Below are positions 39,171-63,531 of a stretch of DNA of 64,000 nucleotides, one piece after another; position 1 is the first letter of the stretch, and each line of letters opens with the position of its first letter. Origin of the DNA: Bacteroidales bacterium (GTDB lineage: Bacteria > Bacteroidota > Bacteroidia > Bacteroidales > UBA10428); contig JAMIIA010000174.1 in NCBI GenBank assembly GCA_035913795.1, forward strand, positions 50,325-114,324, given 5' to 3'. The translations under genes and the position numbers were made by a program. The notes below the pieces were generated by a model. That model saw only the letters and a list, made by a program, of their open reading frames with translations, was not told the origin of the DNA and did not search any database.

Positions 39171-39563
39171 ATGCAAAAATGGCTTTCCATAGTATTTACA
39201 TTGTTTTACCTTTCGGTTACTTCGATCGATGCCATTAATTTTCATTTCTGTCATGGCAGGCTGGTAGATGTTTCTCTCAATATTCCTGAAAAATCATGTT
39301 GTGGTGATCTCTCATCTATTCATAGTGCTTGCTGCGCAAATGTGTTGGTAGATATTGAAGTGGATGAGAATCAGCTCATCGCTGGTGCTGTCTCAGAGTT
39401 TATTCCTCAATTTTCCGCTTCCAACCAACAAAGCGATGCGTTTTTATTTCAACCCGAACAGTCCTCTTCCGACAAGGCAAATTCTCCAGACCTTTCTCCG
39501 CCATTGAGCGTTCATCCCCCATTTTATCTTGTCTATCATTCGTTTCTCTTTTACCATTCTTAA
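39171..39563 (+). CDS. HYC_CC_PP-family protein
   Basis: Signal-like N-terminus, HFC, SCC, CC and C-terminal SPP..HPP; lies upstream of HMA and TBDR genes. Confidence 0.75.
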   Translation: MQKWLSIVFTLFYLSVTSIDAINFHFCHGRLVDVSLNIPEKSCCGDLSSIHSACCANVLVDIEVDENQLIAGAVSEFIPQFSASNQQSDAFLFQPEQSSSDKANSPDLSPPLSVHPPFYLVYHSFLFYHS

Positions 39564-39622
39564 ACTGGTCTTAATTTTTCTTCCTGAAAACATTCAGTTT
39601 AATAATTTTAAATTTTTCTATC

Positions 39623-39979
39623 ATGATACGATTGATATTCGTTTGTAACCTTGTATTTCTTTCTTTTCTTTCTTCGAATAGGGTTTTAGCCCAGCAATCC
39701 AATCAAGCCGAAGCGCAATTTGAGGTAGAAGGGGTATGCGAACAGTGCAAAGCCCGCATCGAAAATGCAGCTTATATAAAAGGTGTAAAATTTTGCGAGT
39801 GGAACAAAAACACCCAAACACTCAAAGTAGTGTACAATGCCGATAAGGTTTCGCTGGAAAGCATACAAAACAGCATTGCATTAGCCGGACACACTGCCGG
39901 AGCCCTTGAAGCCGATTCCATTGCCTATAAAAAACTCCCATCGTGCTGCGCCTACCGCGATGGAGCTCGGGTACATTAA
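39623..39979 (+). CDS. Periplasmic heavy-metal-associated (HMA) protein
   Basis: Signal peptide; VEGVCEQCKARIE; LPSCCAY. Confidence 0.85.
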   Translation: MIRLIFVCNLVFLSFLSSNRVLAQQSNQAEAQFEVEGVCEQCKARIENAAYIKGVKFCEWNKNTQTLKVVYNADKVSLESIQNSIALAGHTAGALEADSIAYKKLPSCCAYRDGARVH

Positions 39980-39981
39980 AA

Positions 39982-42213
39982 ATGAAAATGAAGCTTTTTA
40001 TTGTATTCATTTTACTTTTTCAGGCTTTTCTGGGAGTTACAGCGCAGCCAGCTCCGGAAATCATAACTGGAAAGGTATTCGAATCGGAACACGGACATCA
40101 CCATCCCCTTTCGGGGGCCAATATTTATTGGGCAGGTACCACGCAGGGTACCATTTCTATACCTGATGGCAGTTTTTCCATCGAGCGAAACAGTTCCACC
40201 AATCTTTTAGTGGTGAGTTTTGCGGGCTGTAAGTCCGATACTTTGGTAACCGATCAGCTCAATTATTTCGAAATTATACTAGATAACATTTATGAAATTG
40301 AAGTTGTGGAGGTTGTTAAGCGAGCCAAAACTACCAGTTTTTCCATGATCAATCCGATAAAAGTGGAAAAAATATCGGAGACAGAACTTCATAAAGCGGC
40401 TTGCTGTAATCTTTCAGAAAGTTTCGAAACCAATGCCTCCGTCGATGTTAGCTTTACCGATGCCATTACTGGTACCAAACAAATACAGTTACTCGGACTG
40501 GCCGGTCCCTATACACAGATTACACGCGAAAACATACCTGATATTCGAGGTTTATCGGCCATTTATGGTTTGGAGTATATTCCCGGAACATGGATTGAAA
40601 GCATTCAGCTTAACAAAGGAACAGGTTCGGTAATAAACGGATTCGAAAGCATAGCCGGACAGATTAATGTGGAACTTCGCAAACCCGAATCGGCCGATAA
40701 GCTTTATTTCAATGCCTATGTCAATCAGGATTCGAGGGTGGAAGCCAACCTGAATCTCGCTCAAAAAATTAACGACAAACTTTCCACAGGTCTTTTACTG
40801 CATGCCCGCACGCAGCGGACAGAAATGGATGGCAACGAAGATGGTTTTATGGATAAACCACTCGGAGAGCAACTAATCGTGCTGAACCGATGGAATTTTC
40901 ATACACCGGATCGATGGGAGTCGCAAGTTGGAATTCGGGCAACTTTTAACCGCAATACAGGCGGACAGATGGGTTACTCAGAAAATGCTCCTTCCGGTTT
41001 ATGGGGCATGAACATGGAAACCAACCGCCTCGAAGGCTGGCTGAAAATAGGGAAAGTGTTTGATAAGAACCCTTCACAGAGTATCGGAACCCAATTTTCG
41101 GGTTTGGTACATGATCATAAATCGTCCTTTGGTAAAAAGCAATATGCAGGCAACCAAAAATCGCTTTATGCCAATTTCATCTTTCAATCGGTGCAGAATA
41201 TTTTTCATAGTTATAAAGCGGGGTTTAGTTTTCAGTACGACGATTATACAGAGTCACTCGATAGTTTAAACTTTCTTAGACAGGAAATGGTTCCGGGTGT
41301 TTTTGCCGAGTACAATTTCTCGCCAAACGACCATTTCGATCTTGTAATGGGAATGCGCGCCGATTACCACAATCTTTACGGTGTGTTTTTTACCCCGAGG
41401 ATGCATCTCCGTTATGCTCTGGCAGAGCATTCGGTTATGAGGTTCTCGGCCGGTCGCGGTCAGCGCACGGCATCCATCATCGCGGAAAACAATTCTGTCC
41501 TGGCTTCGTCACGGAGTTTTATCATACGTCCATCGGAAGAAACATTTCCCTATGGTCTTGATAAAGAAGTGGCCTGGAACTTTGGAACAAATTTTACCCA
41601 GAACTTTAAATTGGGCTATCGCGAAGGAACATTTTCGGCAGATTATTACTATACCCTTTTTACCAGCCAGGTAGTTGTGGATATGGATCAAAGTCCGCAG
41701 GAAATAATATTTTACAATCTGGATGGTAAATCTTACGCAAGCAGCATGCAGGTTCAGCTCGATTACGAGTTGTTGCCACGTTTCGATATTCGGTTGGCTT
41801 ACCGTTGGTACGAGCTGCGCACACAGTATTTATCGGGTATGTTGCAAAAACCTTTGGTTTCTCCGCACCGTTCGTTTGCCAACCTTGCCTATCGCACACG
41901 TAAGCATTGGAGTTTCGATTATACCCTGCAGTGGAATAGCAGCAAGCGTATACCATATACAGAATCGAACCCCGTGGCTTATCGTCTGGAGAACCATTCG
42001 CCCTCATTTTTTCTGATGAATGCGCAAGTAAGTAAACAATGGGCTGAAAAATTCGATGTGTATCTGGGGGTGGAAAATATGCTCGACTATAAACAACCCA
42101 ATCCTATTCTTGCTGCATCTGACCCTTTTAGCGAGTATTTCGATGCCTCGCTTATCTGGGGGCCCATTTTTGGACGTATGTTTTATGCCGGCGTAAGATT
42201 TCGGATACCCTAG
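39982..42213 (+). CDS. TonB-dependent receptor (metal-uptake context)
   Basis: CarboxypepD_reg-like domain; plug with AACCNLSESFE; C-terminal YAGVRFRI. Confidence 0.9.
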   Translation: MKMKLFIVFILLFQAFLGVTAQPAPEIITGKVFESEHGHHHPLSGANIYWAGTTQGTISIPDGSFSIERNSSTNLLVVSFAGCKSDTLVTDQLNYFEIILDNIYEIEVVEVVKRAKTTSFSMINPIKVEKISETELHKAACCNLSESFETNASVDVSFTDAITGTKQIQLLGLAGPYTQITRENIPDIRGLSAIYGLEYIPGTWIESIQLNKGTGSVINGFESIAGQINVELRKPESADKLYFNAYVNQDSRVEANLNLAQKINDKLSTGLLLHARTQRTEMDGNEDGFMDKPLGEQLIVLNRWNFHTPDRWESQVGIRATFNRNTGGQMGYSENAPSGLWGMNMETNRLEGWLKIGKVFDKNPSQSIGTQFSGLVHDHKSSFGKKQYAGNQKSLYANFIFQSVQNIFHSYKAGFSFQYDDYTESLDSLNFLRQEMVPGVFAEYNFSPNDHFDLVMGMRADYHNLYGVFFTPRMHLRYALAEHSVMRFSAGRGQRTASIIAENNSVLASSRSFIIRPSEETFPYGLDKEVAWNFGTNFTQNFKLGYREGTFSADYYYTLFTSQVVVDMDQSPQEIIFYNLDGKSYASSMQVQLDYELLPRFDIRLAYRWYELRTQYLSGMLQKPLVSPHRSFANLAYRTRKHWSFDYTLQWNSSKRIPYTESNPVAYRLENHSPSFFLMNAQVSKQWAEKFDVYLGVENMLDYKQPNPILAASDPFSEYFDASLIWGPIFGRMFYAGVRFRIP

Positions 42214-56972: not shown

Positions 56973-57032
56973 TTGTGTTTTACACCAAAGTCTTGATGTT
57001 TACTTTTGGCTTGTCATTTAAACTATAAAGTA

Positions 57033-57749
57033 ATGGAAAGAGGGAATACAAAAAAAAGACTGATTGTTGGTTTAATTGTATTGGTAGTGGGTGCATTGCT
57101 ATTGATGCGCAATGTTGGAATATTTGATTCTTTTATTAGCGAATACATTTTCAGGTGGGAGATGATACTGATAGCCCTGGGTCTTATCAATGTGTTTTCG
57201 CACGAGGGCAATGGCCCGGGTTATTTGCTCCTGCTTATTGGTGGTGGCCTATACCTGCGCAATTACATTGAACTGCCTTATGGCTTTAATTTCTGGCAGA
57301 TATTTGTAGCCTTTGCCTTTATACTGGCAGGTATTTTTATTCTTTTCAAGCGTAAAAATCCGGCGTATTGCAATGGCCCTCGTCGTGAGAATAAAGAAGG
57401 CATCGATACCATTGATGAAGTGGCTATTTTCGGAGGCGGCGACCGCACTATTGTGAGCGATACTTTTAATGGCGGTAAAATGCTTGCCATTTTTGGAGGT
57501 TCGAATTTCAACCTTACGCGGTCGAAGTTGGCACCGGGGAAAAACTATTTCGATGTATTGGTTTTGTTTGGGGGTTTTAAGTTAATAGTACCTGAGAATT
57601 GGAATGTGAAAGTAACAGCCATTTCGATATTTGGAGGGTTTAGCGACAAACACCGTGTGCCTGCGCCCGAAAAACCAGCAGCGGACGATCCAGAACTGAT
57701 CATAAAAGGATTTGTAATATTCGGAGGGGGCGAGATAAAAAGCTATTAA
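57033..57749 (+). CDS. LiaF-like membrane protein (DUF5668/DUF2154-type)
   Basis: Four N-terminal TM segments; AIFGGG, AIFGGS, LFGG, SIFGG and VIFGGGEI repeats. Confidence 0.8.
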   Translation: MERGNTKKRLIVGLIVLVVGALLLMRNVGIFDSFISEYIFRWEMILIALGLINVFSHEGNGPGYLLLLIGGGLYLRNYIELPYGFNFWQIFVAFAFILAGIFILFKRKNPAYCNGPRRENKEGIDTIDEVAIFGGGDRTIVSDTFNGGKMLAIFGGSNFNLTRSKLAPGKNYFDVLVLFGGFKLIVPENWNVKVTAISIFGGFSDKHRVPAPEKPAADDPELIIKGFVIFGGGEIKSY

Positions 57750-57776
57750 GCCTTTGCTCTTATCGAGAAAGAAGCC

Positions 57777-58853
57777 ATGCTGAACCCCATACTTAAAAAC
57801 AAAAAATTTTCACTTGCCTATTTGTCGGCCTGGTTACTTATTGGGTTTACCCAGGTTGCCATTGTGTTGTACTTTTATCCGGGAAACCTGTGGGTATCGA
57901 TTGGCGAAAGTGCCATATTCAATTCGTTTTATGCCATAATCGGAATTGGTATCTGGTATCCGGTGTATTATACCGACCTTGAGAAAAACAAGATTACCAA
58001 TTTTATAACCAATCACCTGGCTTCAAGTTCGCTGGCCGTTGCTCTTTGGCTTTGGATGAGTTATTTGGTTTTAACGGGTCTGTTTAGTCAGCAGCCTGAT
58101 TATGTGCAGCACCTGCAAAATACACTGCCCTGGAGAATTGGCTTTGGTTTTCTTTTTTACATTTTATTGATATCAAACTATTACCTGCTTATCTATTATC
58201 AGAATTTTAAAGAAAAGCTTACCCGTGAGTCGGAGCTAAAAGCCCTTGTGAAGGAATCGGAATTAAATTCATTGAAAGCCCAGATTAATCCACATTTTTT
58301 ATTCAATAGCTTAAACTCCATTAGTTCACTTACCATGATCAGCCCTGAAAGAGCTCAGGAAATGGTGATCAACCTGTCGGAATTTTTGCGCTATTCGCTT
58401 TCTACCAAGAATGAAATTTTAACCAGTTTCGAAGACGAACTGAATAACATCGAACGCTATTTAAAAATCGAGAAAACTCGTTTTGGCAAACGCCTGCATG
58501 TTGAAAAACACATTTCGGGTAGCTCGCTTAAACTGGAGTTGCCTGGCCTGATTCTTCAACCAATTATTGAGAATGCTGTAAAATATGGTGTTTACGAAAG
58601 TATTGATCAATCAGAAATCTGCATAGAAAGCAGGCAAATTGACACTATGCTCGAAGTAATTGTGCGTAACGATTACGATCCGGAATTTTTGGTGAAAAAG
58701 GGAGCAGGCATTGGGCTGCGCAATGTAATGAGCCGAATGCGTATACTTTATGGTAGCGACGAACTGATGAAAGTAAATAAAACCGACAATAAATTCGAAA
58801 TAGTATTGCGTTTTCCGCAAGCAGGGCAAGGAAAACCGGCAATTGAATCTTAA
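57777..58853 (+). CDS. LytS/YpdA-type histidine kinase
   Basis: ELNSLKAQINPHFLFNSLNSI, LQPIIENAVKYG and GIGLRNV. Confidence 0.92.
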   Translation: MLNPILKNKKFSLAYLSAWLLIGFTQVAIVLYFYPGNLWVSIGESAIFNSFYAIIGIGIWYPVYYTDLEKNKITNFITNHLASSSLAVALWLWMSYLVLTGLFSQQPDYVQHLQNTLPWRIGFGFLFYILLISNYYLLIYYQNFKEKLTRESELKALVKESELNSLKAQINPHFLFNSLNSISSLTMISPERAQEMVINLSEFLRYSLSTKNEILTSFEDELNNIERYLKIEKTRFGKRLHVEKHISGSSLKLELPGLILQPIIENAVKYGVYESIDQSEICIESRQIDTMLEVIVRNDYDPEFLVKKGAGIGLRNVMSRMRILYGSDELMKVNKTDNKFEIVLRFPQAGQGKPAIES

Positions 58854-58864
58854 GCATAACATCC

Positions 58865-59623
58865 ATGGAAAAACTAAAGGTTGTAATTATCGAAGACGAA
58901 GAGTTGGGCCGCGAGGTAGTAAAAAATTACCTGAAAGAACTCAACACGGTGGAGCTTATTGCCGAATGTGAAAATGGGTTCGAAGGTGCAAAAACCATTA
59001 ACGAGCAAAAACCCGACCTGGTTTTTCTCGACATACAAATGCCTAAGTTGAATGGTTTTGAGATGCTTGAAATTATCGATGCTTCAACCCGACCCGAAAT
59101 AATATTTACCACGGCTTATAATCAATATGCCATTCAGGCTTTTGAGCTCAACGCCATCGATTACCTCTTAAAACCTTTTTCAAAAGAAAGATTTTTCGAA
59201 GCCGTTAGCAAAGCCATCGACCGCTATCGCTCCAAATCAGGTTCCATTCAGCCACCGGTCTATACGCAATTGACGCATCAACCTATTACTGAAACACTCG
59301 AAAGGGTGGTAGTAAAAAGCAACCACAAAATAAGTGTTATTCCGGTAAGCAAGATAAAATACCTCGAAGCGCAGGACGATTATGTAATGCTCTATACCAC
59401 CGAAGGTAAACACCTGAAACAGGGAACTATGAAATACTTCGAAGATAATCTCGACAGCAACGAGTTTCTTAGGGTGCACCGTTCCTATATTATTCGTATC
59501 GACCAGGTGAACCAACTCGAACCTTATGGAAAGGACAGCTATGTAGCGCGCCTGAAAGATGGTACAACAATAAAAATTAGCAAAAGCGGATTTAAAACCC
59601 TTAAGGAGAAGCTTAATTTCTAG
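58865..59623 (+). CDS. LytTR-family response regulator
   Basis: Receiver (IEDEE, FLDIQMP, TTAY, DYLLKP) plus LytTR domain (FLRVHRSYII). Confidence 0.95.
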   Translation: MEKLKVVIIEDEELGREVVKNYLKELNTVELIAECENGFEGAKTINEQKPDLVFLDIQMPKLNGFEMLEIIDASTRPEIIFTTAYNQYAIQAFELNAIDYLLKPFSKERFFEAVSKAIDRYRSKSGSIQPPVYTQLTHQPITETLERVVVKSNHKISVIPVSKIKYLEAQDDYVMLYTTEGKHLKQGTMKYFEDNLDSNEFLRVHRSYIIRIDQVNQLEPYGKDSYVARLKDGTTIKISKSGFKTLKEKLNF

Positions 59624-59776: not shown

Positions 59777-59798
59777 TATCTTTGCATCGTTGTTGCAA
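59777..59798 (+). promoter_or_regulatory. -7 box with overlapping palindromic operator
   Basis: TATCTTTG (59777-59784) overlaps TTGCATC-gtt-GTTGCAA (59782-59798). Confidence 0.55.
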
Positions 59799-59817
59799 TT
59801 GAAATATATTTGCATTT

Positions 59818-60219
59818 ATGAAGGCAATAGATATAATAAATAGACATAATCTCAAACGTACAAGCTGCCGTGAAGGAATTATCGAAGTTGTAATGGCTTC
59901 TCAGCACGCACTCTCCGAAAATGAAATCAGGCAACTACTTGCTGGTAATTACGATCGTACAACTTTTTATCGTTCTTTCAAGACCCTTCAGCAGCATAAA
60001 ATTTTACATAAGATTGTTGTAGATAATCAACAGGTAAAGTACGCTCTCGATAATTCGGTGACACATAAAAAAGAACACGCACACTTCTATTGCAACGAAT
60101 GCCATTGTGTTCAATGCCTTGAATCGTGGCCGGTAAATAGGGTTAAGTTGCCCGAAGGATACGAAGAAGTTGAAACTGAAGTACTGGTCAAAGGAACATG
60201 TGCTGTTTGTAAGAAATAG
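59818..60219 (+). CDS. Fur-family regulator (Bacteroidota Zur-like)
   Basis: LKRTSCR, DRTTFYR, HAHFYCNEC and KGTCAVC. Confidence 0.88.
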   Translation: MKAIDIINRHNLKRTSCREGIIEVVMASQHALSENEIRQLLAGNYDRTTFYRSFKTLQQHKILHKIVVDNQQVKYALDNSVTHKKEHAHFYCNECHCVQCLESWPVNRVKLPEGYEEVETEVLVKGTCAVCKK

Positions 60220-60232
60220 AATACTATTCGGA

Positions 60233-60595
60233 TTGTTAAAGTTTAAAATACATATCGTAATTGCCTTATTGGGAATATTTACTTTTCCAATTGCCTTCCA
60301 ATCAATTCACATTATAGGGCATCATTCTCATGGCTTTATGGTAGACCAGCATATTTGCGGTACCAATGCAGTCGATGAGTGTGCTCAGGCGGAGGCAATA
60401 GATGGATCAGAAAAGGAGAATCAATGTCCTGTATGTACATATCAATTTGTAATAAAAAGCCTATCTGAGGCACCCTTTTTTACATCAATCTTGCCTGTAA
60501 GCCTTGGTTGGTTTAACGAAATAGTAATAATCCGAACTGACCTACCGGTATTTTCGAATAAATCTCCGCGAGCGCCGCCCTCTTTTACCTGTTGA
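60233..60595 (+). CDS. DUF2946/CruR-like upstream ORF with RAPP motif
   Basis: Probable TTG start; signal-like TM, HIIGHHSHG, CPVC and C-terminal SPRAPP. The ORF track starts at 60170. Confidence 0.7.
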   Translation: MLKFKIHIVIALLGIFTFPIAFQSIHIIGHHSHGFMVDQHICGTNAVDECAQAEAIDGSEKENQCPVCTYQFVIKSLSEAPFFTSILPVSLGWFNEIVIIRTDLPVFSNKSPRAPPSFTC

Positions 60596-60647
60596 TTCTG
60601 CTTTCCAGGTAATTTTTCATTTCTTTTTTTGGTTTAACTCAAATTAT

Positions 60648-63059
60648 ATGAGCAAAGTTTTCGTGCTTTTATTGAGCATGAATATCTTTTTAAGTCTGTC
60701 TTTCGGGCAAAATAAGTATTCTTTAAAAGGTGAGGTTGTTGATGAAAACAACCAGTCCCTAGCCGGAGCGTCTGTTTTTTTGTACCCGATAGCGGAAGGG
60801 TCGATTACCGACCAAAAGGGCAGTTTTTTTATTGGCAACCTCAAAAAGGGTGAATATAAAATCGAAATATCATTTATCGGATACAAAACGATAAGCGATA
60901 CTATTTTGATTAACGGAGAGATGACCTACAATGCCAAACTCAATGTTTCATTGGTTAATTTACAAGAAGTGGTTGTCACCGATCATTATGGTGAAAAGCG
61001 AAAAAAGGAAGAACCACTTAATATAGAAATTGTGAATGACGATTACCTGAAACAAAACCTTGGTGGTAGCCTCATGCAATCGCTGGAAAGGTTGCCAGGA
61101 GTTACCACCATTGATATTGGTTCCGGGCAGTCAAAGCCTGTAATCCGGGGACTGAGTTTTAACAGGGTGGTTGTAGTCGACAATGGTATTAAGCACGAAG
61201 CCCAGCAATGGGGTGCCGACCATGGACTTGAAATTGACCAGTATGCAGTTGATAATATCGAAATAATAAAGGGACCCGCTTCGCTCATGTATGGTTCAGA
61301 TGCCATTGGCGGAATAATTAACATGAAAAGCAGCGTTATTGTGCCAGAAGACTGTTTGGGTGGAACCATTGACTTGGTAGGGAAATCAAATAATAATTTG
61401 GTAGGTAGCTCTATTTTACTCTTTGGTAGAAAAAAATGGTTTTATGCCGATTTTCGAGCTACTTATATTTCCTATGGCGACTATAAAGCTCCGACCGATC
61501 ATGTCGATATTTACAATTACCCTGTTTATTTGTATAACAACCAATTACGAAATACCGCAGGCAAAGAGCAAAATCACCATTTATCGGTAGGAATACTTAA
61601 ACCAAAATTTCGAAGCAAATTTTACCTGAACAATGTTTACAACAAGAGTGGCTTTTTTGCCAATGCACATGGCTTAGAGCCCAAACAGGTTGATACAGTT
61701 TTGCACGACAAGTCAAGCCGCGATATCATTTATCCCTACCATCATGTAAACCATTTCAAAATCACCAATACAAGTGAATATAAATGGAGCAAAACAAAGC
61801 TTGAGGCCGATCTCGGTTTTCAGCAAAATTTCAGACAGGAATGGAGCCAATATGTTAGTCATGGATGGATGCCCGCTGTTTTTCCAGACACATTGAGTTT
61901 TGACCAAGATCTTGAGCGTCAGTTTAAGAAATATGTCTATTCAGGTAATGTAAAAATGAACCATGAACTGACTGGAAAAACAAATTTATTATTGGGGGTC
62001 AACAGCGAGTTTCAACAAAACCAGATCGATGGCCGTGCGTTTATCATACCCGCCTTTACTCAAATAAGCTTAGGCGGTTATGCACTTGCCAAACATTCCT
62101 TTTCTGGAAGAGCTATTTATCAAATGGGCATTCGTTACGATTATGGCAACATCAACACCGATGAATATTACGATTGGTTTCCATCGCAAGTGGTAATCGA
62201 TAATGACACTACGTATCAGTATTTACAAAGAGCAGATGATATTGATCGCGAATTTTCAGAAGTAACGTGGTCGGCAGGTTTTAATTACAATACCGAAAAA
62301 TGGTCGTTTAAAGGTAATTTGGGTAAAAGTTTTCGAATGCCAACGGCGAAAGAATTGGCTGCAAACGGCCCCGAATACCACATGTATATGTATGTGGTGG
62401 GCGATGCCAATTTGGCGCCAGAAAAAGCCAGTCAACTCGATTTAGGTGCAGAGTACAATTCATCTAAATTTGCCATAGGTATCACGCCCTTTGTCAATTA
62501 CTTTTCGAATTACATCTATCTAAACCCCACTTCCGATCACGATAGAAATAATGGTGCTGGCTTGCAGATATTTCGATACACACAAAGCAAAGTGTTTCGC
62601 TATGGTGGCGAAATTCATGCACACTATCAGTTACTAAAGCCATTGCAAATAGGTGTTATTGGTGAGTATGTTTATTCTGAACAACTATCTGGCGAAAAGA
62701 AAGGCTATACCCTGCCCTTTTCGCCTCCTGCTTCGGCTATTTTAAATGTTAAGTACCAAAGGCCAAAGATGGGTTTTATGGAAAACAACTATTTATCGGT
62801 TGATTACAGGCTAACTGCACCTCAAAACAATGTCGTTGCTCCCGAAGAACCCACCGATGGATATCAGGTAATAAACATTGGCTTGGGTGGAGATGTAAAA
62901 CTAAAAAGTCAAAGAGTGAACATCTCAATTCAGGTTCAAAACCTCCTTAACAACAAATACTTTAATCACACCAGCTATTACAGGCTAATTAACCTTCCAG
63001 AGCCGGGTAGAAATTTTATTGTCAATCTTTCAATACCCTTTACAGGAAAAATTAAATAA
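60648..63059 (+). CDS. TonB-dependent receptor (Zn/Ni/Co-uptake-type context)
   Basis: CarboxypepD_reg-like domain; KPVIRGL, QQWGADHG, NAHG..HD, NHTSYYR..PGRNF. Confidence 0.9.
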   Translation: MSKVFVLLLSMNIFLSLSFGQNKYSLKGEVVDENNQSLAGASVFLYPIAEGSITDQKGSFFIGNLKKGEYKIEISFIGYKTISDTILINGEMTYNAKLNVSLVNLQEVVVTDHYGEKRKKEEPLNIEIVNDDYLKQNLGGSLMQSLERLPGVTTIDIGSGQSKPVIRGLSFNRVVVVDNGIKHEAQQWGADHGLEIDQYAVDNIEIIKGPASLMYGSDAIGGIINMKSSVIVPEDCLGGTIDLVGKSNNNLVGSSILLFGRKKWFYADFRATYISYGDYKAPTDHVDIYNYPVYLYNNQLRNTAGKEQNHHLSVGILKPKFRSKFYLNNVYNKSGFFANAHGLEPKQVDTVLHDKSSRDIIYPYHHVNHFKITNTSEYKWSKTKLEADLGFQQNFRQEWSQYVSHGWMPAVFPDTLSFDQDLERQFKKYVYSGNVKMNHELTGKTNLLLGVNSEFQQNQIDGRAFIIPAFTQISLGGYALAKHSFSGRAIYQMGIRYDYGNINTDEYYDWFPSQVVIDNDTTYQYLQRADDIDREFSEVTWSAGFNYNTEKWSFKGNLGKSFRMPTAKELAANGPEYHMYMYVVGDANLAPEKASQLDLGAEYNSSKFAIGITPFVNYFSNYIYLNPTSDHDRNNGAGLQIFRYTQSKVFRYGGEIHAHYQLLKPLQIGVIGEYVYSEQLSGEKKGYTLPFSPPASAILNVKYQRPKMGFMENNYLSVDYRLTAPQNNVVAPEEPTDGYQVINIGLGGDVKLKSQRVNISIQVQNLLNNKYFNHTSYYRLINLPEPGRNFIVNLSIPFTGKIK

Positions 63060-63066
63060 ACTAAAA

Positions 63067-63531
63067 ATGTATAACAAACTAAATCTTAAAATTATGAACA
63101 GAAGTATTGTATTTCTTGCAGTTGTATTCACATCAGGGGTTCTTTTTACCGCATGTAATAAAGAGGAAACGCCAGCTAAACCGGTTATAAATATACTGGA
63201 GCTTGGTGAAGGAGACACGCACGGCAACGACTATACCGCTAAAATTGGAGGCGAGTTGCACATTGAGGCAGAAATTGTAGCCGAAGGAAAAATTGATAAA
63301 GTTAGTATCAGACTGCACCCCGAGGGAGAACATGAAGCGGAAGGTAGCCTTGATGAATGGGAATTGGACACCACTTACACCAAGTTTTCAGGATTAAAAA
63401 ACACCACTTTTCATGAACATGTTAAAATTGACACGACTGCCGAACCAGGCGAGTACCATTTTGATTTTGTGGTAACCGATATGGAAGGAAACCAAACTAG
63501 TGTAGAAGCTGATGTTTTGATTGTAGAGTAA
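63067..63531 (+). CDS. DUF4625 lipoprotein
   Basis: Lipobox FTAC; ELHIEAEI, FHEHVKI and GEYHFDFVVTD. Start may be 63094. Confidence 0.85.
   Translation: MYNKLNLKIMNRSIVFLAVVFTSGVLFTACNKEETPAKPVINILELGEGDTHGNDYTAKIGGELHIEAEIVAEGKIDKVSIRLHPEGEHEAEGSLDEWELDTTYTKFSGLKNTTFHEHVKIDTTAEPGEYHFDFVVTDMEGNQTSVEADVLIVE

Follow-up and report, generated by a model that had tools for sequence, protein, structure and literature searches.

A small gene in the 64,000-nt window analysed here, which comes from the genome of a Bacteroidales bacterium (GTDB lineage Bacteroidota; Bacteroidia; Bacteroidales; UBA10428; assembly GCA_035913795.1, contig JAMIIA010000174.1, positions 50,325 to 114,324 of the forward strand), probably specifies a CruR/CutF-type leader, an arrest peptide that would act in cis and sense a ligand, an assignment that we make on comparative grounds and hold with fair confidence. 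The leader and its four partners are a five-gene putative uptake operon, composed of a Fur-like repressor, the leader, a TonB-dependent receptor (TBDR) and two DUF4625 lipoproteins (Table 1), and the identical five-gene operon is found in a Prolixibacteraceae relative. Near its C-terminus the leader carries the tetrapeptide RAPP. Both RAPP and RGPP have been shown to arrest the ribosomes of Escherichia coli and Bacillus subtilis (PMC10951233, PMC12992588), and upstream open reading frames (uORFs) bearing them are enriched ahead of TBDR genes across Gram-negative phyla (PMC12992588). The principle has already been published; what is new here is a Fur-headed sister branch with DUF4625 lids and without the RNA switch of its relatives, plus a conserved operator. 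An earlier note on this DNA had called the gene a uORF, which is a loose term here, as the first cistron is the Fur-family gene and the leader comes second.

Direct reading of the window gives the leader protein as MLKFKIHIVIALLGIFTFPIAFQSIHIIGHHSHG...NQCPVCTYQF...NKSPRAPPSFTC. The features for which the earlier note had singled out this open reading frame (ORF), i.e., a length of 120 amino acids (aa), a signal-like transmembrane segment, HIIGHHSHG, CPVC and a RAPP motif four residues from the stop, are all present where that note had placed them. It was also correct about the surroundings: the leader begins 13 nt after the 3' end of the Fur-family gene, its stop codon is separated by 52 nt from the TBDR ATG at 60648, and the DUF4625 genes lie further downstream. 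As for the start codon, an alternative in-frame TTG at 60170 would run into the Fur gene, and the family consensus (MxxxKKHIA...) starts at 60233. Residues 6-28 are hydrophobic and follow K3/K5, and judging from the sequence this segment appears to stay uncleaved. The AlphaFold2 model has a helix at residues 2-34, with a predicted local distance difference test (pLDDT) score above 90, and coil for the rest of the chain (mean pLDDT 75.9). The four-residue tail between RAPP and the stop codon reads SFTC. Taking over the position seen in the CruR/ApdA toeprints of PMC12992588, we predict that the ribosome stalls when its P site is occupied by Pro115 and its A site by Pro116.

From its conservation we conclude that the leader is a real and selected gene, far beyond chance, because it has 173 homologue clusters, because H26, C65, R113, P115 and P116 are invariant and because the RAPP codons vary synonymously. 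A word-indexed protein search with the leader returned no match beyond the leader itself. The clusters came from an exhaustive HMMER search of 1.84 billion representative proteins (E<1e-3); nearly all of the matches are 100-135 aa long with the same layout, and all database sources label the family members 'hypothetical'. Among the matches listed, 146 of 150 have RAPP or RGPP, nearly always 1-16 residues from the C-terminus. Named carriers include Marinifilum, Prolixibacteraceae, Draconibacterium, Carboxylicivirga and other Bacteroidales. Of 401 genomes sampled within the order, 32 gave family matches at E<=1e-8; in a phylum-wide sample, again of 401 genomes, 38 did so at E<=1e-3. Synteny is strong as well: 27 of the 30 phylum-level loci have a TBDR directly downstream of the leader, as do 55 of the 60 related loci that we tabulated.

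Column frequencies were taken from an alignment of 100 family sequences. In the helix, they are 98% for P19, 94% for Q23, 100% for H26, 93% for H30, 73% for H31 and 46% for H33; in the cysteine region, 100% for C65, 69% for P66, 89% for C68, 87% for Y70 and 86% for F72; and in the arrest motif, 100% for R113, P115 and P116 and 94% for A114, with KSP found ahead of RAPP. The codons for RAPP differ synonymously among orthologues (CGA/AGA/CGT for Arg, GCG/GCA/GCT for Ala and CCG/CCT/CCA/CCC for Pro), and what is under selection is therefore the peptide rather than the RNA. That the ORF arose by chance, or is a biologically meaningless extension of the Fur gene called by mistake, might be suspected from the TTG start, from the 'hypothetical' labels in all databases and from the want of an own Pfam or NCBIfam match; given the 173 homologue clusters, the invariant motif residues and a synteny that extends across orders and classes, this explanation is already refuted by conservation and deserves practically no weight.

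The distance between the CxxC and the R(A/G)PP motifs is exactly 44 residues in 170 of the 173 family proteins that have both, and in 87 of the 89 CxxC-bearing members of the 100-sequence alignment. In the same 173 proteins, the offset from H26 to C65 varies from 15 to 69, and its mode (39) accounts for only 31% of them. The tail after the two prolines is unconserved and comprises 1-6 residues in most family members. A frozen length combined with a free sequence, counted from the stall site, is what would be expected of an exit-tunnel spacer and not of a folded domain. These numbers bear directly on the main rival reading, in which the leader product is instead a small, stable protein of the inner membrane or periplasm that binds metal and takes part in uptake, e.g., by accepting or chaperoning cargo from the TBDR or by partnering the Fur-like protein, with RAPP merely slowing translation for membrane insertion and leaving downstream genes unaffected. 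Such a role would account for the high conservation of the helix residues P19, Q23, H26 and H30, agrees with the confident N-terminal helix of the AlphaFold2 model and would need no RNA read-out element, none of which was detected in this clade. But a stable protein would leave the exact 44-residue ruler unexplained, tied as it is to RAPP in a family that tolerates indels elsewhere, and it fits poorly with the unconserved tails behind RAPP and with the coil predicted for the C-terminal two-thirds of the chain; moreover, the homologues CruR and CutF work in cis only and are undetectable as proteins (PMC9426467, PMC9973294). We consider a stable protein product unlikely.

The relation of the leader to CruR, a member of the DUF2946 family (PF11162), emerges through its relatives. 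The leader protein has no Pfam match at E<=0.1 and no NCBIfam match, and the precomputed PF11162 label is carried by two of 73 database relatives. With PF11162 itself as the profile, 32 of 100 relatives are matched at E<1 (best E 2.6e-6). When ten relatives were scanned singly, seven scored 12-22 bits against the gathering cut-off of 23.7, and the alignments of the relatives cover positions 5-117 of the 117 in the profile. Because the relatives align end-to-end to PF11162 at sub-threshold scores, we read the leader family as a sister branch of DUF2946/CruR that lies beyond the reach of the curated model. The leader has the hydrophobic N-terminus, the CxxC, the near-terminal RAPP and the fixed spacing (44) of DUF2946/CruR. 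DUF2946 genes head operons with a TBDT or other metal-homeostasis genes; here the TBDR is directly downstream, and the leader follows the Fur-family gene as the second cistron.

In more than 2000 DUF2946 proteins the CxxC-RAPP spacing is 45 residues, give or take 1-2, and altered spacing disturbs regulation (Roy et al., PMC9426467). CruR (Bp2923) of Bordetella pertussis precedes the copper TonB-dependent transporter (TBDT) BfrG/CrtA (PMC9426467), whose family, CrtA, is described in PMC12914433, and CruR has been shown to arrest in vitro with prolines in the P and A sites (Fujiwara et al., PMC12992588). The leader is like CruR in being a small protein with a hydrophobic N-terminus, a CxxC, a RAPP 3-4 residues before the stop and a TBDR next in the operon, with a spacing of 44 in the leader and 45 in CruR. 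It is unlike CruR in several other respects. The helix of the leader has an extra motif, Q-x2-H-x3-H(H), called invariant; the gene stands behind a Fur-family gene with an operator of its own, whereas the cruR promoter is reported to be without a Fur box; and the intergenic region to the receptor is 52 nt long and U-rich, whereas that of CruR has 162 nt and a Rho-utilization (rut) site. In addition, the receptor in the window, which has a CarboxypepD_reg domain, resembles ZnuD and haem receptors rather than the CrtA type, and it is followed by DUF4625 lids where the CruR operon has a PepSY_TM protein. The earlier note had proposed a CruR-like switch, which the sequences, as the sole line of evidence, support through this architecture, through the spacing of 44 versus 45, through the sub-threshold PF11162 alignments and through a TBDR in about 90% of the loci.

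The leader also falls within the operational definition of CutF-like proteins, with 120 aa (<150), a PP at residues 115-116 of 120 (last 15), a hydrophobic N-terminus and a same-strand intergenic region of 52 nt (<1000). A survey of such proteins found many members in Bacteroidota and frequent TonB-type neighbours, and not all of them were copper-specific (PMC9973294). In CutF of Rhodobacter capsulatus, the stall unfolds a stem-loop that masks cutO's ribosome-binding site, and copper thereby turns on a detoxification gene (PMC9973294). The leader differs from CutF in that its clade has neither such a stem-loop nor pairing of the start codon, and its target is an uptake receptor.

A C-terminal core motif with proline in the P/A sites, a localisation signal and a place upstream of the regulated gene are also shared with ApdA, ApdP, ApcA and SecM (PMC7897499, PMC10951233, PMC10987492). 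All characterised RAPP peptides that do not sense metals (ApcA, ApdA and ApdP) monitor localisation pathways (PMC7897499, PMC10987492), which raises the alternative that the leader monitors the envelope machinery, be it Sec/YidC insertion, with release by the insertion force of the helix, or TonB-related capacity, or else that the polycistronic mRNA is anchored at the translocon by the arrest, so that the TBDR and the lipoproteins would be synthesised at the membrane. A membrane-targeting N-terminus, downstream products that are all exported and a short, unstructured intergenic region are compatible with this alternative. We nevertheless regard it as quite improbable: ApdA, ApdP, ApcA and SecM monitor Sec/YidC, precede sec or yidC genes and have no conserved metal-ligand residues or CxxC ruler, whereas insertion sensing alone would not account for the CxxC ruler of the leader or for its invariant His and Cys residues, its context is a receptor operon under Fur-family control, and its family is related to the metal-responsive DUF2946.

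Other small exported proteins adjoin TBDR genes as well. Those of the HYC_CC_PP (NF047658), DUF6660 and LIC10965 (NF047702) families are likewise rich in Cys and His, with Pro-rich C-termini. Over their C-terminal halves, 29 of 100 members of the leader family give weak matches to NF047702, the LIC10965 family of Leptospira (16 bits against a cut-off of 130). In Leptospira, LIC10965 adjoins the TBDR gene LIC10964 (annotated as phuR, hemin receptor), and both are induced in a host model (PMC3953431). LIC10965 may be another branch of the leader superfamily, in Spirochaetota.

The operon's first gene codes for a Fur-family regulator that keeps the signatures of the family, HxH-x2-CxxC and a C-terminal CxxC, with two CxxC pairs that would make up the structural Zn site. 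It is only distantly related to the solved Fur and Zur proteins, and it could be assigned to no subfamily (Fur, Zur, PerR or Irr), as every NCBIfam equivalog scores far below its cut-off. Residues conserved among its orthologues are C17, H87-A-H89-F-Y-C92xxC95, C100 and C129xxC132; C100 presumably occupies the place of the conserved sensing-site Glu of Fur proteins. Leaving aside the window's own locus, 24 of the 60 related loci have a Fur-family gene (48-74% identical to that of the window) immediately before the leader; all 24 are from the window's own order, and nine more loci were retrieved with the Fur-like protein as query. Measured in two loci (the window and L073), the gap that separates these two genes is 2-13 nt long.

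The 110 nt upstream of the Fur-like start were aligned across 18 orthologous loci. All 18 keep the consensus TGCAWC-N3-GWTGCA, fused to TAnnTTTG boxes between unrelated flanks, and two of them, L005 and L059, have the palindrome twice. The window's copy (59783-59797) overlaps the distal box TATCTTTG and sits upstream of the proximal box TATATTTG, which stops 5 nt ahead of the ATG of the Fur-like gene; this TTTGCATTT-ATG arrangement is conserved in many orthologues. We take the TAnnTTTG boxes to be promoter elements from the published Bacteroidota consensus, and the same arrangement is conserved in the orthologous loci. The operon mRNA may be leaderless or have a very short leader, and in the leaderless case TTTG at 59781-59784 could be a -33 element. 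We know of no Fur, Zur or PerR box that resembles TGCAWC-N3-GWTGCA. The 3.9-Mb assembly contains a single perfect copy of the palindrome, at this operon. A wider palindrome regulon, which might have given a clue to the metal, was rejected, as the five copies with one mismatch are all intragenic or part of a terminator hairpin. Because the palindrome over its own promoter is conserved in 18 loci and unique in the genome, the evidence points to the Fur-like protein as a dedicated, autoregulated local repressor. The earlier note had described the switch as layered on Fur repression; sequence data, and only these, agree with this, given a palindrome over the Fur-like promoter in 18 loci and one perfect genomic copy, from which we infer binding. 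The combination of a Fur-family repressor, a promoter palindrome and a ZnuD-like TBDR is like that of the ZnuD-type zinc piracy receptors repressed by Zur or Fur. Unlike the regulators of Zur/ZnuD systems, however, the one in the window is local and co-transcribed, with an arrest leader interposed between it and the receptor.

Three co-oriented genes immediately upstream of the operon (57006-59623, + strand) code for a membrane protein of the LiaF kind (PF22570), a histidine kinase of the LytS type (PF06580) and a LytTR response regulator (PF04397 + PF00072). The relatives do not keep these genes beside the operon, which makes a link with it improbable.

Building on the gene, motifs, ruler, synteny and operator described above, we propose that the operon is controlled in two tiers. 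In the first, the metal-loaded Fur-family protein would bind TGCATCGTTGTTGCA over the core promoter and silence the whole operon, including its own gene. When the ligand is scarce, the operon would be derepressed and the leader translated. Its N-terminal helix, with the K/K pair conforming to the positive-inside rule and with a P19/Q23/H26/H30 face, would insert into the inner membrane, and the ribosome would arrest at Pro115 and Pro116, which would then occupy the P and the A site, respectively. In this state the CxxC knuckle would trail the motif by exactly 44 residues, which corresponds to about one exit-tunnel length plus a few residues. Cys65 and Cys68, probably together with His26 and His30, would capture the ligand just outside the tunnel, the chain would fold or be pulled, and the arrest would be released. 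Because the target is an uptake receptor, the sign of the response would be that of CruR: the stalled state would permit expression of the TBDR and the lids, and the released state would shut it off. Returning ligand would thus lower downstream expression before the Fur-type repressor has acted. This second tier is modelled throughout on homologous systems; not only the arrest and the ligand binding but also the direction of the response, its read-out and the metal are proposed.

A narrower version of this mechanism is possible, although we see it as doubtful. In it, the leader of the Fur-linked clade would be a translocon-coupled, co-translational sensor of zinc or another non-copper metal, in which the Q/H/H site at the membrane edge and the CxxC, kept precisely 44 residues away from the peptidyl-transferase centre, close a site of the His2Cys2 type during emergence of the chain and thereby release the RAPP arrest, with a read-out unlike those of CruR and CutF (no start masking, terminator or rut-like spacer). 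A rapid post-transcriptional veto would then operate within a slower, autoregulated circuit of the Fur type.

Several results weigh against a ligand-sensing arrest leader. A six-frame search with a threshold as loose as E<=10 still gave no match of the leader protein itself to PF11162. The conservation of P19, Q23, H26 and H30 in the helix goes beyond the needs of a disposable signal, and the mature protein could have a job of its own. The other points concern the way in which a stall would be read out. Intrinsic-terminator attenuation was rejected as a conserved mechanism, as a hairpin followed by a U-tract occurs in 15 of 59 loci and in none of the nearest orthologues (L002-L010). For a stem-loop opened by the stall as in CutF, the footprint of the stalled ribosome was forced to be single-stranded and the pairing of the receptor start region was compared. 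Of this pairing, the footprint received a fraction of 0.00 in the window and 0-0.17 in close orthologues except L065 (0.55), and this mechanism was rejected for the clade of the leader. From the motif to the start codon, most close orthologues fold no more stably than shuffled sequences: their z-scores are mostly about -0.3 to +1.9, with lower values in L003 (-1.6), L048 (-2.2) and L065 (-2.1); those of the window were -0.87 and +0.78 in two computations. Finally, neither a C>G bias nor a rut-like composition was detected in the spacer, which is about 50% U, and the early receptor region, and Rho, which the earlier note had brought up, finds no sequence support as the read-out in the clade of the leader.

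No Rfam family matched the leader or the intergenic region. The Fur-linked clade thus appears to keep the arrest motif and the ruler without a recognisable RNA transducer. Candidates for the coupling are transcriptional polarity that arises when ribosome and RNA polymerase uncouple along the U-rich spacer, an action of Rho that needs no canonical rut site, mRNA stabilisation and membrane tethering of the transcript.

The sister RAPP/RGPP leaders of Bacteroidota (class-level relatives, L012-L035) belong to the same profile family, share the 44-residue ruler and have a TBDR downstream, but unlike the clade of the leader they have no adjacent Fur gene. In L012, L014, L018, L020-L024, L028, L030, L031 and L035, the RGPP/RAPP codons and the tail are predicted to pair with the initiation region of the receptor. 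In these loci the footprint takes up 30-65% of the pairing of the start region, which becomes more accessible once the footprint is forced open. Sister loci with a spacer of at most 120 nt have fold z-scores of -0.3 to -5.6, four of seven being at or below -3. From these models, the sister clades look like CutF-type translational switches opened by the stall.

As regards the ligand, a divalent transition metal is most likely and zinc is our best guess, with copper, haem, nickel and cobalt as alternatives. A divalent-cation cargo is suggested because both lids carry conserved His clusters, because ZnuD is the nearest solved relative of the TBDR and because the window has a separate copper-like module. 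Among solved structures, ZnuD is the best match to the TBDR (5.9e-26), and OprC gives 2.5e-10; against the ZnuD model NF038289, the receptor scores 153 bits, with a cut-off of 950. Its best NCBIfam model is TonB-hemin, below the cut-off of that model, and a FRMP...YH...DANLAPE box is found at residue 562. The leader offers a potential ligand set of two His and two Cys, and its homology to CruR points to copper. The FRxP/NxxL boxes, the Cys-Pro dipeptide of the leader and the Fur family would equally fit haem or iron; we take the Cys-Pro dipeptide to resemble a haem-regulatory motif, and the place of the weakly similar LIC10965 family beside a putative hemin receptor of Leptospira also speaks for haem or iron. 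The earlier note had the switch tuned to Zn, Ni or Co, which is one possibility among several and gained no support: no computation picks the ligand, and the TBDR, although nearest to ZnuD, also resembles haem receptors and OprC.

Both DUF4625 genes lie directly after the TBDR gene, and acidic residues resembling an export signal follow the lipobox Cys in both products. A lid role of DUF4625 proteins for TBDTs has been described (bioRxiv 10.1101/2023.03.17.533168). In the orthologue alignment, lipoprotein A has the conserved His motifs HPEGEHE, FHEH and YHF. The motif DIHNNF(N/D)HHSHSTEV of lipoprotein B is near-invariant, with HHNF in one orthologue and NL in place of NF in another. The second DUF4625 gene is the last of the operon, and the gene that comes next is convergent.

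Metal-sensing arrest peptides have so far been studied in two proteobacterial examples only, CruR and CutF. The family described here presents a 44-residue ruler that takes almost any sequence but no indels, and a second ligand set, the invariant His pair on the membrane helix, which may shift the metal specificity. A Fur-type repressor and an arrest leader in one operon would allow the two to be compared, e.g., slow versus fast or cytoplasmic versus periplasmic sensing. Several hundred 'hypothetical proteins' of Bacteroidales, as well as a new Fur-family operator, would also acquire a candidate function, although the gain is incremental.

Table 1. Features of the putative uptake operon and its leader (positions refer to the window)
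Feature	Position	Strand	Details
Core promoter region, two TAnnTTTG boxes	59777..59812	+	TATCTTTG 59777-59784; TATATTTG 59805-59812
6-3-6 palindrome TGCATC-GTT-GTTGCA, TGCATCGTTGTTGCA	59783..59797	.	Putative operator of the downstream Fur-family repressor
Fur-family regulator, divergent, 133 aa	59818..60219	+	PF01475, 37.6 bits vs cut-off 23.1
Leader gene, 120 aa, CruR/CutF-like candidate arrest peptide	60233..60595	+	TTG start 60233, TGA stop 60593-60595
His motif HIIGHHSHG, residues 26-34, end of N-terminal helix	60308..60334	+	Alignment column frequencies
CPVC motif, C65-P-V-C68	60425..60436	+	Alignment
CxxC-to-RAPP spacer, 44 residues	60437..60568	+	Length constant, sequence weakly conserved
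RAPP, R113-A-P-P116, codons CGA GCG CCG CCC	60569..60580	+	Candidate arrest motif
Weak hairpin 60586-60611 (-5.8 kcal/mol) across the stop codon, then U-rich tract	60586..60631	+	Terminator-like, not conserved
U-rich spacer, 52 nt: 29 T, 10 A, 8 C, 5 G	60596..60647	+	Contains AACTCAAAT (60636-60644), recurring in orthologues
TonB-dependent receptor, 803 aa	60648..63059	+	Pfam Plug, barrel, N-terminal CarbopepD_reg_2 (CarboxypepD_reg-like)
DUF4625 surface lipoprotein A, putative TBDT lid	63067..63531	+	PF15418, 3e-23; lipobox LFTAC/NKEE (cleavage at the slash)
DUF4625 surface lipoprotein B, 161 aa	63586..64000, on to 64071 (71 nt past the window)	+	PF15418, 1.1e-34 (full-length); lipobox IISC/EKDIDDE (cleavage at the slash)

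A second leader-like module is present elsewhere in the window (39171-42213, + strand), where a HYC_CC_PP gene is followed by genes for a CopZ-like HMA lipoprotein and a TBDR. The HYC_CC_PP gene (39171-39563) scores 42.5 bits against NF047658 (cut-off 28) and codes for 130 aa with HFC/CC/CC and with PP motifs near the end. The module is probably a copper-linked counterpart of the operon described here. Kinship between the leader and this HYC_CC_PP protein, which has no RAPP, was rejected (hhalign probability 0.1%).

Two further observations concern the region around the receptor start. A box of the form GGT(G)GTTTAA(C/T)CTCAAT recurs 5-30 nt before the receptor ATG, at 60631-60644 in the window and also in L002-L010, L039 and L043; its GGTGG can pair with the Ala-Pro-Pro codons in L005, L006, L039 and L040, but not in the window. 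Within the signal-peptide codons of the receptor, a 9-bp hairpin at 60660-60682 (+ strand; TTCGTGCTT...GAGCATGAA) was flagged as terminator-like. Its CATGC...GCATG pairing recurs in orthologues and may merely follow from the conserved (V/M)LLLSM codons.

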